DNA of 64,000 bases from Candidatus Poribacteria bacterium (GCA_965197475.1 CBDANF010000002.1:832001-896000); one strand, 5' to 3'; shown: positions 10,453 through 13,980, counted from the stretch's first letter. Notes: generated by a model not told the origin, from the letters alone. Made by a program: numbers and translations.

Positions 10453-10481
10453 TTGACAACGCGGTTTTTGTATGGTATAAT
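10453..10481 (+). promoter_or_regulatory. consensus sigma70 promoter of the higB-TPR operon
   Basis: TTGACA (10453-10458), 17-bp spacer, TATAAT (10476-10481), preceded by TGG (extended -10). Confidence 0.8.
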
Positions 10482-10811
10482 GGTTAGAATTAATTGATCT
10501 GATATAACTACCCAAGGAGCGGACACTCTCTGTAATTACCTGATGCGTATCACCGGACGAAGAAAACTGGAAGAATTTGCAAAAAGACATTCAACTGCCA
10601 GACAACGACTTCAGCGGTGGTATGAGTTGATGGAGGACGGGACTTTTGAGTCTATTGTTGATTTGCGTGATACGTTTCTTCAAGCAGATCCAGTTCGAGT
10701 ACGTCCAGGAAAGTTAAGTCATCCAGGGGAAAGAACAACATTGACAGTTTTCAACATTGGTAGAAATGTACGTCTTATCGCATTTATCAATTATAGAATA
10801 CAAGAAGTTTC

Positions 10812-11797
10812 CGCTCATGTCAAGAGTAAGTGCTTTTGACGAGTTTTGCTATAAAATCAACACTGACAGCTTTTAGATTCATGACGAACTCACAGATTGC
10901 GACGTAACCGGCGAGGAACTTTTTATGAACGCCACGAAAGGGACGAAGGAAGTTTCGCAGCGTCGTCCAGGCACCTTCAATCGTCCTTGTATGGATCTCG
11001 TAAAGACCATCACCGTCTGCGTCTCTTGCCCACTCGCCATCCTTATGGAGAACAATCTCACGGGCGCGCTGAATACGGTTATAGCCACGCCAACCATCCG
11101 TATACACCGTTGAAGTCGGCAACGTCCACTGATGAACGTGTGTTGAAAGCGTCGCAGAATCGGTGTGCCGCACAACACGTAATCTCAGGAGACCGCTTTC
11201 GCGACCTTTCGTCCCAACAATAGGCGGACGATCATTGTCATAAGTCCCATGTCCCCTGCGTTTATTGCCACGCCGACGCGGCGGATCCGAAGCATCAACG
11301 TGCTTATCGCCTTTTTCACCGGCGTTTTGAAACATCTCATCTGTTTCGACTTCAGCATCAGGTAAAGCAGCTTCGGGTTGTATCTGCTCTGCCGAAGTTT
11401 GGAGTTTACGTCTTATAGAAAGAACGGTTTGACGACTTAGACCCAATTCACGCCCGAGTTGTGCACTTGAAACACCTTGACAGACACCGCGCAAAAGCAG
11501 AACGACCTGTGAGGGACGAAACTGCGTGCCAGCAAAGACCGTCCCGGTATAGAGGTTGTAGATGCTCTCACAGTGTTTGCAGCGATACACTTGTAGACCA
11601 CTTGTTTCAGTCGGACGGAACTTGCGTGCCTCCGCCACGCTCGCTTGGCATTTTGGGCAACACAGCCCTTGAAGGTGGAAATGATCCAACACCCACGCTT
11701 GAGTTTTTTCTTCATCCATGAGAGATTGTATTGGAAAGTCCATAGGTAACACTCTAACATAACTTTGAAAAAATAGCACTTACTTTTTACATGAGCC
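10812..11797 (-). mobile_element. IS1595-family insertion sequence (986 bp)
   Basis: Imperfect TIRs CGCTCATGTCAAGAGTAAGTGCT / AGCACTTACTTTTTACATGAGCC; 8-bp TSD GAAGTTTC at 10804-10811 and 11798-11805. Confidence 0.92.
10820..11743 (-). CDS. IS1595-family transposase
   Basis: Zn ribbon CPKC..CKHC, HTH, 'VETDEM', 'VYTDGWRGY', 'TIEGAW...FRGVHKKFL..YV'; likely start MDFPIQ. Confidence 0.9.
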   Translation of the reverse strand: MDFPIQSLMDEEKTQAWVLDHFHLQGLCCPKCQASVAEARKFRPTETSGLQVYRCKHCESIYNLYTGTVFAGTQFRPSQVVLLLRGVCQGVSSAQLGRELGLSRQTVLSIRRKLQTSAEQIQPEAALPDAEVETDEMFQNAGEKGDKHVDASDPPRRRGNKRRGHGTYDNDRPPIVGTKGRESGLLRLRVVRHTDSATLSTHVHQWTLPTSTVYTDGWRGYNRIQRAREIVLHKDGEWARDADGDGLYEIHTRTIEGAWTTLRNFLRPFRGVHKKFLAGYVAICEFVMNLKAVSVDFIAKLVKSTYS

Positions 11798-11863
11798 GAA
11801 GTTTCTATTAGACACGTGATCACGCACGAAGAATATGATAAAGGCAGCTGGAAGAGGTAAACT

Positions 11864-13456
11864 ATGTTGATGGAAACACAATCTACATTCAATGCATCGT
11901 CAATGCTAAGGAATTTGGGATCAGATTTCGCACCCTCCGATGTAATTCGGAGCAGCTCTCAATTGTTCGCGAGTTCTGAACCAATTCAAATTCAGACACA
12001 CATTCACCAACCCTTTTCGGTTGTGACCACAACTTACCCTGAAAGTGCCTATCAATGGTTAGTAGAGGTGTTAGATGGATTAATTGATTTTGGGAATCGA
12101 CACGGACACTTCGGTGTCATCAATTTGACAGAAGACGAATATCAGTGGCTTGATGAGATATTAGAAGAATTAATCTATTCCGTTGGTGAGAATGAAAATC
12201 ACATATTAGCACCATTGATGGAATTTGTTATTCGTCTCATTAGCAGCTATGAGGATGCTTATGTTCCGAAACTGACAAATCAGTTTTCAAAGTTGGCAGA
12301 AGAAGGAACAATTAAAACCGGAACTGAAGATGAACTCGCTGCGCATTCCTTCTTCTCAATTGGTTATCTTCTTTGTCAAGGGAAACAAACAGAAAAAGCA
12401 CTTTCTGCTTATGATAAGGCAATTGCACTGAAACCTAATTTTTGGATAGCTTATAACAATAGAGGTGGCTTACTGCAGGAACTTTGCCAATACGATGAAG
12501 CGATTTCTGACTTGGGAAAAGCAATCAGTTTTGCTCCTGATTTTGCCGAACTTTACGTTAACAGAGGTTGTGCAAAAGGCAAATCTGGTCAAGATAAATC
12601 TGCTAAAAACCGGCTTGGCAAATATCAAGCTGCTATTGCCGATTTTGATAAGGCAATCAAGTTAGGACTTAACTCTGCTAATGCTTACTACAACCGTGCT
12701 CTTGCAAATAACTCGCTAGATAAACATGATGTTGTTATAACCGACTGCAACAAGGCAATTCAGATAAATCCAGCTTTTGTGAAAGCCTATAATCTGCGAG
12801 GATATTCACACGGTGTTCTTGGGCAACCAACTGATGCATTATCGGATTTTAACCATGTGATTCGTTTGGATCCTGAAAATGCAAAAGGTCATTTTTTTCG
12901 AGGAAAAGCAAATAAAGAACTTAGCAAATATATTGATGCTCTTGCGGACTATGATAAAGCAATTAATCTTGATCTAAATAATGCGGACGCATATTATGAT
13001 AGAGGATATGTATATGCTCAGCTTGAAAAATACGAAGATGCTCTTGCGGATTTTGATGAAGCAATCCGTCTCAACTCGAATCATGCTGAAGCATACAATT
13101 TCCGAGGATTGGTGAAAGTTATGCTTGAGCAGTATGAAGATGCTCTTGCGGATTTTGATGAAACAATCTGTCTCAGTCCGGACTATGCAAAAGCATACGA
13201 TAGTCGAGGAATGTTGAAAACTATACTTAAGCAGTATGAAGATGCTCTTGCGGATTATACTGAGGCTATTCGCATAAAACCTGATTTTACAGAAGCCTAT
13301 GCTCATCGTGCTGCTATAATGGCGGATTTAGGAAACGTTGAAGAAGCTAGAAATAATCTCAAAATTGCTTTGGAACTTGCAGAACAGCAAGGACAAGAAG
13401 ATCTCAAAGCCATTATTGAGGAGCAGCTCCAAGAACTCAACAATTCAACACCGTAG
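11864..13456 (+). CDS. TPR-repeat protein with HigA-like N-terminal region
   Basis: About 10 TPRs (e.g. AYYDRG...YEDALADFDEAIRL); aa ~50-135 'EDEYQWLDEILEELIYSVGENENHILAPLMEFVIRLISSYE..YVP' resembles the HigA N-terminus; ATG lies 3 nt after the restored higB stop. Confidence 0.8.
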   Translation: MLMETQSTFNASSMLRNLGSDFAPSDVIRSSSQLFASSEPIQIQTHIHQPFSVVTTTYPESAYQWLVEVLDGLIDFGNRHGHFGVINLTEDEYQWLDEILEELIYSVGENENHILAPLMEFVIRLISSYEDAYVPKLTNQFSKLAEEGTIKTGTEDELAAHSFFSIGYLLCQGKQTEKALSAYDKAIALKPNFWIAYNNRGGLLQELCQYDEAISDLGKAISFAPDFAELYVNRGCAKGKSGQDKSAKNRLGKYQAAIADFDKAIKLGLNSANAYYNRALANNSLDKHDVVITDCNKAIQINPAFVKAYNLRGYSHGVLGQPTDALSDFNHVIRLDPENAKGHFFRGKANKELSKYIDALADYDKAINLDLNNADAYYDRGYVYAQLEKYEDALADFDEAIRLNSNHAEAYNFRGLVKVMLEQYEDALADFDETICLSPDYAKAYDSRGMLKTILKQYEDALADYTEAIRIKPDFTEAYAHRAAIMADLGNVEEARNNLKIALELAEQQGQEDLKAIIEEQLQELNNSTP

Positions 13457-13524: not shown

Positions 13525-13980
13525 ATGACATATAAAGTTTTAGCAACCCTTATTGCTTTAATCTGTTTCGGCTGCGGTGCTGATACGGATATTGATACAG
13601 AAATTCCGCGTATTCTTGACACGCGGGTTGTCCAAATCCGTGAAGCCCCAAATCCACGCCAGTTGGATATTGATTTTGAGGTGATTTTCTCATCAGCACC
13701 TGTTAATTTAACAGTTGATTGTGGAAATTCTGCATTTCTTGACTGGGAACAACACAGTAATGTTGTTTCACTATATTTCAGAACTACTAAATTTAGGTGT
13801 GCCAGCACTCCTGCGGAACCGATCCCATGTTCGCCTGAAACTTTACGGACAATTAGGGAAAACCCACAAGGTGTGCTTGAGAGAACCTATAAATGCACAT
13901 TTGTTTGGGATACGGGACGGCAACATGTATCGTTGAAAGCAGTCCTACCCATAGAATTGGCTATCTATACACCTGAGTGA
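13525..13980 (+). CDS. hypothetical lipoprotein
   Basis: Purine-rich RBS region upstream, hydrophobic N-terminus with lipobox CFGC. Confidence 0.6.
   Translation: MTYKVLATLIALICFGCGADTDIDTEIPRILDTRVVQIREAPNPRQLDIDFEVIFSSAPVNLTVDCGNSAFLDWEQHSNVVSLYFRTTKFRCASTPAEPIPCSPETLRTIRENPQGVLERTYKCTFVWDTGRQHVSLKAVLPIELAIYTPE

Follow-up and report, generated by a model that had tools for sequence, protein, structure and literature searches.

Tetratricopeptide repeats in place of the DNA-binding half of HigA in a probable toxin–antitoxin family of Poribacteria

In the type II toxin–antitoxin (TA) system HigB-HigA of Escherichia coli K-12 (YgjN-YgjM; structures 5IFG, 6KML, 6KMQ, and 6JQ4, with 5YCL from Shigella), a toxin of Pfam family PF09907 is encoded first and its antitoxin directly downstream in one operon. 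The helix-turn-helix (HTH) domain of K-12 HigA is placed at the C-terminus (PMC6987408), helices α1–4 dimerise, and α3–6 contact the toxin (PMC7340258). PD-lambda-2 is a validated abortive-infection defence consisting of a HigB-like protein, a HigA-like HTH–peptidase fusion, and a required third gene; PD-lambda-2B is toxic alone and is rescued by the HigB-like PD-lambda-2A (Vassallo et al. 2022, PMC9519451). In TAC (HigBAC/CmdTAC; PMC11980606; 10.1101/2024.02.24.581848) and CapRel(SJ46) (PMC9712102), an antitoxin is coupled to a protein-binding module that is perturbed by a phage protein, and in Avs/STAND NTPase sensors, repeat arrays of the TPR type bind phage proteins directly (PMC13601566, PMC13581612). 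Here we analyzed positions 10453–13456 of a 64,000-nt stretch (hereafter the window) from Candidatus Poribacteria bacterium (GCA_965197475.1, CBDANF010000002.1:832001-896000), where a higB gene interrupted by an insertion sequence (IS) precedes a gene for a 530-aa protein with a HigA-like N-terminal domain (N-domain) and about 10 tetratricopeptide repeats (TPRs). We consider it very likely that this gene pair represents a type II TA module whose antitoxin joins the N-terminal half of HigA, without its HTH, to a TPR array. For the fuller proposal, that binding of a ligand to the TPRs of such an antitoxin also gates HigB, we lean slightly in favour.

The open reading frame (ORF) at 10543–10839 matches Pfam PF09907 (HigB_toxin) with 41.5 bits (cut-off 27; E = 1.6e-10), in agreement with a preliminary description of this DNA, which had called a HigB-like gene here; intact relatives score 98–112 bits against the same model. 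Over residues 1–92, an intact orthologue and E. coli K-12 HigB share 26% identity (E = 1e-12). By homology, the product of higB is a RelE-fold toxin in family PF09907, of the same type as HigB from E. coli K-12, and family membership suggests that this toxin is a ribosome-dependent mRNA endonuclease. The perfect TTGACA-17-TATAAT promoter described ahead of the gene was recovered with every hexamer position matching (Table 1). A lax promoter scan returned 7 promoter-like sites where 7.3 were expected, so the site count alone carries no meaning. Across 10 orthologous loci and the paralogue L002, the promoter block is the sole conserved stretch 5′ of higB, with the conservation confined to the hexamers, and the combination of a consensus promoter with a missing HTH, which had also been pointed out, is a pattern conserved in the orthologues.

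The higB gene of the window is split after codon 90 by the IS. With the IS and one copy of its flanking repeat removed, the higB frame runs for 17 more codons to a TAA at 11858–11860 and the ATG of the next gene follows at 11864; the stop lies 3 nt ahead of the 530-aa ORF, as had been claimed, and the restored gene comprises 107 codons, equal in length to the intact orthologues. In other genomes, orthologues carry the same C-terminal motif and the same junction without a break and encode a 107-aa HigB. The two genes share a reading frame (window 11858–11866; junctions of loci L037–L068): in 20 of 30 pairs the junction consists of the stop, one codon, and the ATG, and 5 more pairs have a 12-nt in-frame gap. 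A Shine–Dalgarno-like GGAAGAGG lies within the last codons of higB. Gene pair, near-consensus promoter, and tight stop–ATG junction are conserved in related genomes. The spacing differs from that of E. coli, where the two coding sequences overlap by 4 nt.

Among 17 Poribacteria HigB sequences, 22 columns are invariant, and four of these (I91, T96, H97, and Y100) lie in the displaced 17 codons; the T-H-x-x-Y motif is invariant across Poribacteria HigB. The ORF now present ends at 10839 and encodes 90 native residues followed by 8 from the IS. A complete higB frame including the C-terminal T-H-x-x-Y region is not present in the window copy, and the truncated product is most likely inactive. Because higB is broken, the window copy cannot act as a toxin-gating module. 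Its sequence marks it as a relic, dead as a toxin, in which an orphan antitoxin–TPR gene has been cut off from the promoter by the IS.

The 530-aa ORF (11864–13456) matches only TPR families in Pfam (TPR_1, E = 9.2e-55, 9 stretches). Manual segmentation gave 10 repeats from aa 159 onwards in the canonical 34-residue register (G8, A20, A27, P32), with a 10-aa insertion in repeat 3. No HTH was found in the ORF at E ≤ 0.1 in Pfam or NCBIfam, and no enzymatic domain was among its Pfam and NCBIfam matches, so the count of about 10 TPRs and the absence of a recognisable HTH both hold as first described. The window protein lacks the C-terminal Xre-type HTH (PF01381) that belongs to HigA. Its first 158 residues match no family in Pfam or NCBIfam, and a search of the ESM Atlas gave no usable match.

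The relationship of this N-domain to HigA was traced through a third protein. A profile built from a domain alignment of 34 sequences (A3) picks out HigA proteins of canonical length from other families of Poribacteria, each encoded directly after a 95-aa HigB: a 141-aa protein at locus L079 (E = 4.5e-18) and a 132-aa protein at L081 (E = 3.1e-11). The L079 HigA carries HTH_3 at residues 88–139; it is 42% identical to window aa 89–136 (E = 2e-11) and, over its whole length, 32% identical to E. coli K-12 HigA (E = 7e-20). In hhalign, A3 aligned with 24 E. coli-type HigA sequences at P = 2.6e-4 and a probability of 42%, with the core on HigA residues 25–70, and a second profile (A2) gave P = 7.2e-4. 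When an AlphaFold2 model of aa 49–150 was searched with Foldseek, the 7 best matches in the Protein Data Bank (PDB) were all E. coli or Shigella HigA chains, each of them weak (E 1–3, TM 0.36–0.40). JGI labels several 75-aa relatives "antitoxin HigA". The HigA-like segment proposed previously thus has real homology behind it. These comparisons establish homology between aa ~49–140 and the N-terminal half of HigA of the E. coli type, and they show a protein that keeps this half and adds a helix and a leader, with the TPRs starting at the former HTH boundary. Like the E. coli system, the locus combines a toxin of the same family, encoded first, with an antitoxin whose N-terminal helical half is homologous and has E. 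coli HigA among its best structural matches. Unlike E. coli HigA, the window protein has no C-terminal Xre HTH, and so no obvious means of DNA binding or autorepression; it carries a leader, an extra N-terminal helix, and about 10 TPRs replacing the HTH.

As the window toxin is broken, the intact orthologous pair of locus L037, whose N-domain is 78% identical to that of the window, was used for complex prediction, each chain being modelled with an alignment. The interface between HigB and N-domain that the preliminary description had asked for was predicted with an ipSAE of 0.89, against 0.01 for the best of 3 controls. Of 80 solved complexes, 58 attain the mark of 0.89, as do 2 of 110 mismatched pairs; this calibration is approximate since our own alignments were used. 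At least 92% of contacts are shared between model runs, and the pLDDT of the partner is no lower than 72. The predicted contacts involve partner residues 58–66, 93–115, and 123–138 and the N-terminal helices and strands of HigB; the invariant H97 and Y100 of HigB lie outside the confident predicted contacts. The model therefore predicts that an intact orthologous HigB binds the HigA-N-like domain.

The linkage of higB to the TPR gene is conserved, as the preliminary description had anticipated. In 29 loci of other genomes, a HigB ORF lies directly 5′ of the best match in 22 (15 TPR fusions and 7 short forms; two have a degenerate HigB), and the remaining 7 have no HigB directly upstream. Close relatives of the window gene were found at 37 loci, 36 labelled Poribacteria and 1 "uncultured bacterium". 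A HigB sequence stands directly 5′ in 30 of them, being uninterrupted in 24, cut short by the end of a contig in 1, and broken in 5 (L039, L042, L046, L065, and L069); the other 7 are without HigB. The genome of the window holds two more pairs, one of HigB with a 105-aa protein consisting of the N-domain only and one of HigB with a 699-aa N-domain–TPR protein. The domain is present in 140 of 176 genomes of the phylum and in 106 of the 111 from the window's family; a single genome has as many as 9 matches. Within the best 150 of 528 matches, 114 lie in open frames of at least 230 aa and 33 in frames of at most 160 aa. The N-terminal 160 aa compared with the whole library gave 156 representatives at E ≤ 1e-3; 29 of the best 150 carry TPR_1, and HTH is absent among the 25 most frequent of the 57 Pfam families that these best 150 relatives match. 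These observations bear on the simplest alternative, that the two genes are functionally uncoupled, being accidental neighbours or a decayed remnant. The broken higB of the window fits such a view, and a terminator-like hairpin at the left end of the IS (10818–10841) may stop transcripts from the promoter before they reach the TPR gene; no outward promoter from the IS toward the TPR gene was found in the promoter scan. For the family as a whole, accidental adjacency is contradicted by the linkage in 22/29 and 30/37 loci, the junction geometry, the HigA homology, and the predicted interface, and we regard it as highly improbable.

TPR fusions form one end of a graded series that runs from canonical HigA through a 75-aa mini-HigA and forms of ~105–148 aa with the extra helix to TPR fusions of 240–846 aa. 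At L075, a 75-aa mini-HigA comprising only the core is encoded directly after HigB, and at L001 a 105-aa mini-HigA occupies the same position; both have the same conserved core as the window protein, ending at the old domain boundary. Mini-HigA stands alone; the window protein has the leader, one more helix, and the TPR array besides. Searching with a profile of the short forms gave 3214 clusters at E ≤ 1e-3, mostly of 75 aa, without a Pfam domain and named "hypothetical" at NCBI; their labels include Zixiibacteriota, Desantisbacteria, Planctomycetota, Armatimonadota, and Poribacteria. The search for longer proteins gave 6 matches and says little on the spread outside Poribacteria. The analysis thus defines an unnamed, widespread family of HTH-less mini-HigA proteins, covered by no Pfam model, in which the toxin-binding half of HigA appears as a portable module, and even on the most ordinary reading the series represents a clear domain replacement in an antitoxin. 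The single TPR-fused relative with a source name is a Poribacteria protein called plainly "tetratricopeptide repeat protein"; under such a name, censuses of TA or defence systems in sponge symbionts would miss the family.

We infer the following mechanism for intact members of the family. The helical domain would bind and neutralise HigB. As the HTH is missing, autorepression would be lost and both proteins would be made constitutively, their translation coupled. The TPR array would act as a protein-binding extension that makes the availability or stability of the antitoxin depend on a ligand, for which a phage protein is the most plausible candidate; ligand sensing by the TPRs is plausible in our view, and binding of the ligand would free HigB, following the logic of abortive infection. 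If the TPR array does gate HigB, the arrangement would be a simple, two-protein coupling of a repeat-array sensor to a ribosome-dependent RNase, and would add a third route by which antitoxins sense phage, beside the chaperone-dependent route of TAC and the fused one of CapRel. A bolder extension, which we hold as doubtful, is that the multiple copies per genome in these sponge symbionts form a receptor repertoire, with HigB toxins held by HTH-less HigA domains whose TPR arrays are shuffled as cassettes and each recognise a different phage or host protein; such a repertoire would be a TPR-gated TA immune family without an NTPase switch. Three things make the system interesting: how large the family is, how cleanly one domain of the antitoxin has been replaced, and the idea that TPRs might gate an RNase toxin.

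The resemblance to TAC and CapRel is one of concept. The extra module of TAC is a separate SecB-like chaperone, and in CapRel toxin and antitoxin form one chain of a different fold; neither uses TPRs. No SecB-like gene was among the flanking genes scanned at our loci, a scan that included no search aimed at SecB. Unlike Avs/STAND proteins, the present system has no NTPase or oligomerisation switch, and its effector would be a RelE-fold RNase, a protein in its own right, kept in check by an antitoxin domain. Neither a TPR-fused HigA (or other TPR-fused antitoxin) nor HigB–TPR pairs in Poribacteria turned up in a literature search, although supplementary tables could hide such loci. The proposal that the architecture is new is weakened by the wide occurrence of the HTH-less mini-HigA and by the HigA fusion of PD-lambda-2; with TAC and CapRel as further precedents, the architecture is less unprecedented and its novelty lower than first stated.

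Several observations weigh against the reading of these genes as a ligand-gated TA module. Toxicity, neutralization, and the ligand are all points that we infer. Sequence searches of the PDB, with the N-domain alone or with a 60-sequence profile, returned no HigA, which is why homology had to be shown through the L079 link protein, and the Foldseek matches to HigA are individually insignificant (E ≥ 1). The E. coli and Shigella HigBA complexes have been solved, so the score of the predicted complex may partly reflect likeness to them. The neighbours of the locus in the window are housekeeping genes, namely a sulfatase-like ORF and a gene judged SelA-like from its translation, and the family as a whole occurs in ~10 distinct contexts, made up mostly of metabolic genes. 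Viral contigs gave 4 pattern matches, none of them a relative. The fate of loci that have lost the toxin, the distribution of changes in the TPRs, and the precedent of PD-lambda-2 count on the same side and are set out with the explanations that they favour.

Loss of the toxin gene is recurrent. At L039, higB is split by an unrelated 1.1-kb insertion whose ORF matches only winged-helix/HTH Pfam families, and at L042 by an insertion of ~270 bp; since the IS of the window gave no blastn match in the other fetched loci, these insertions are different elements. The gene is truncated or frameshifted in L046, L065, L029, and L033 and absent from L050, L059, L061, and L066. At L069 and in proteins P0001, P0032, P0079, and P0138, a few N-terminal residues of HigB are fused in frame to the partner; the shared-frame junction explains such fusions of HigB remnant and antitoxin after a deletion (L069, P0001, P0032). 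Recurrent, independent loss fits a gene that is harmful when unchecked. The antitoxin–TPR frames nevertheless remain open at loci with a damaged or missing toxin (the window, L039, L042, L050, L059, L061, and also L069), which could mean that the TPR protein has a toxin-independent role. On this alternative, the TPR array would have a task unrelated to toxin control, for instance as a eukaryote-like repeat protein with a part in the sponge symbiosis or as a cellular scaffold, and HigB, through the fusion of the array to the antitoxin domain, would serve as an addiction device and so stabilise the TPR gene or the locus around it. It would accommodate a class of ~354-aa relatives, which has no HigB upstream at all, and the presence of the window's sulfatase gene directly 3′ in nine related loci (L025, L039, L041, L043, L045, L050, L059, L061, and L066), an arrangement that indicates vertical inheritance; sponge-symbiont genomes have also been reported to be rich in TPR proteins and TA systems. 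Export to a host is not indicated, as the leader shows no hydrophobic, signal-peptide-like stretch on reading the translation by eye (no predictor was used). The arrays are shuffled and resized between close relatives, which would be odd for a conserved housekeeping or symbiosis role, and the up to 9 matches per genome speak against it as well. We judge a toxin-unrelated TPR role unlikely, though not negligible.

The TPR arrays vary far more than the domain that precedes them. Across relatives, identity to the window protein is 68–80% in the N-domain and 43–93% in the TPR part, and protein lengths range from 453 to 837 aa. At L039, the TPR part is 93% identical to that of the window, with 18 of 91 N-domain positions changed, a contrast indicating that the two parts have different histories. 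In 326 distinct repeats, variability is highest at positions 9, 12, and 13 of helix A. These positions form the usual TPR ligand face and are variable in TPR proteins generally, which lessens the weight of this observation for ligand gating. The closest pair shows no enrichment of changes on the concave TPR face (2 of 54 positions vs 18 of 252 others), and in the next pair the enrichment is only modest (21 of 54 vs 63 of 252). The lack of excess change on the binding face in the closest pair would suit an explanation in which the TPR array replaces the lost HTH half in a structural sense only, through oligomerisation, toxin contacts, or protease protection or delivery, leaving an ordinary, non-autoregulated TA system with no ligand. 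The toxin-binding helices α3–6 of E. coli HigA extend past the part retained here, so that something may need to compensate (PMC7340258). Forms of 75–148 aa with neither TPR nor HTH adjoin HigB in many genomes, however, and the helical domain thus seems sufficient alone; the wide range of repeat numbers is likewise unexpected for a fixed structural role. We rate a purely structural array as somewhat less likely again than a toxin-unrelated one, and ligand gating of HigB keeps our slight preference.

PD-lambda-2 is the nearest precedent. It shares with the present locus a HigB-like protein and a long protein that starts like HigA, and the HigB of L037 matches the PADLOC model PD-Lambda-2_A over nearly its full length (E = 8.6e-16); the mini-HigA core weakly matches positions 9–54 of the PD-Lambda-2_B profile (E = 9.5e-4). 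The window protein itself has no match to PD-Lambda-2_B in PADLOC and no HTH or peptidase in Pfam. PD-lambda-2B keeps an HTH and an ImmA/IrrE peptidase, whereas the window protein has TPRs and no HTH, and PD-lambda-2 needs a third gene, whereas the genes downstream of higB–TPR pairs differ between loci and no conserved third gene was seen. By analogy, this precedent makes a defence role more probable and cautions that the roles may be unconventional: since part B and not part A is toxic there, the roles of the two proteins here could be unexpected too, a further point against our reading. The long HigA-derived protein would then be the harmful partner or an effector adaptor, restrained by the HigB-like protein, and both the toxicity and rescue of PD-lambda-2 and the match of Poribacteria HigB to PD-Lambda-2_A would agree with it. 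Such a reversal sits poorly with a TPR protein that has no enzymatic domain, with a HigB family that retains an invariant T-H-x-x-Y motif, and with the pattern of repeated breakage and deletion, which falls on higB rather than on the TPR gene, as expected of the harmful partner. We assign it a very small probability and continue to regard HigB as the toxin.

The element in higB has inverted repeats at 10803–10837 and 11772–11806 and an 8-nt direct repeat at 10804–10811 and 11798–11805, 8 bp being the usual target duplication for the IS1595 family. Its transposase ORF matches DDE_Tnp_IS1595 (48 bits) and NCBIfam transpos_IS1595 (93.6 bits, cut-off 75), and membership of the IS1595 family is supported by transposase, inverted repeats, target duplication, and multiple copies together. 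The stretch 10812–11797 occurs end to end at ≥99% in 31 other places of the genome (32 in total), and four further copies have about 72% identity. Because the copies are nearly identical, the insertion is recent, and their number points to a recent transposition burst of this element in the genome. Contigs of public runs diverge exactly at 10808–12 and 11799–804, running into other flanks; none of these contigs joins across the IS and an IS-free allele was not seen among them, parts that they leave uncovered being uninformative. RNA-library contigs from two runs of one study cover 10578–10793 and 11913–12129 at low depth, which is not proof of transcription.

Table 1. Features of the higB–TPR locus, in positions of the window.
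Feature	Position	Strand	Evidence
Near-consensus sigma-70 promoter with extended −10 (TTGACA, 17 nt, TG-n-TATAAT)	10453–10481	+	Promoter scan: 12/12 hexamer matches, TG present before the −10; TTGACA starts at 10453, TATAAT ends at 10481
higB, 5′ part: codons 1–90 of the 107-codon HigB	10543–10811	+	PF09907; the left copy of the target duplication occupies the final 8 nt
986-bp IS1595-family insertion sequence with terminal inverted repeats at both ends	10812–11797	−	Transposase ORF 10820–11779 (−)
Right 8-nt copy of the target duplication, then higB 3′ part: last 17 codons and TAA	11798–11860	+	Holds I91, T96, H97, and Y100
Poorly conserved N-terminal leader, aa 1–48	11864–12007	+	Alignments; first model residues at pLDDT < 50
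Probable toxin-binding helical domain, HigA-N-like, aa 49–140: extra helix and conserved core	12008–12283	+	Model with 4 helices, pLDDT 78; homology
Linker, aa 141–158	12284–12337	+	Point where canonical HigA enters the HTH and mini-HigA ends
About 10 TPR repeats, aa 159–509, overlapping a conserved C-terminal capping helix, aa ~499–530	12338–13453	+	TPR_1; family-wide repeat profile

Some relatives lie next to restriction–modification (R-M) genes. At 16 of the 37 loci (within L044–L068), a Type ISP R-M gene on the same strand, with Type_ISP_C, ISP_coupler, and N6_Mtase domains and a match to PADLOC REase_MTase_IIG, ends ~100 nt before higB; these loci are syntenic and count as about one event. 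Several of the loci in this group carry a second HigB/TPR pair in tandem. The paralogous pair L001 (C3:35819-39031), HigB with its mini-HigA, stands between N6_N4_Mtase and ResIII helicase genes, as if inserted into a type III-like restriction–modification operon. An AAA_35 ATPase gene lies near one related locus. In PHROGs, the N-domain had no match and mini-HigA a weak one only (E = 8.4e-4).

Downstream of the TPR gene of the window, a 151-aa ORF with a lipoprotein-like start (13525–13980) and no Pfam match lies before the sulfatase gene; no counterpart was seen in the related loci, in which nothing separates the sulfatase gene from the TPR gene. At L071, HigB is intact and the partner frame opens only ~180 nt downstream, as if frameshifted at its 5′ end, although an assembly error is possible.

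The ~354-aa class (L021, L022, L031, and L070), an abundant one, combines the N-domain with ~4 TPRs and a tail weakly like DUF2281 (E = 9e-4, below the cut-off). Its genes are often immediately preceded by a Type ISP R-M gene or by another TPR gene, the gene at L021 lies just before a further HigB pair, and the first residues of the class resemble a HigB remnant. Two further proteins (P0025 and P0033; a cluster of 54 members) have the N-domain, 1–2 TPRs, and a region weakly like HSDR_N_2 (E = 1e-3 to 7e-3, below the cut-off), which is the nuclease-like N-terminal domain of the type I restriction enzyme R subunit. In P0061, P0086, P0087, P0097, P0111, P0140, and P0145, the N-domain is followed by 2–3 tandem acidic repeats of ~35 residues without a Pfam match, and to judge from their sequences these repeats are another fusion partner for the putative toxin-binding module.

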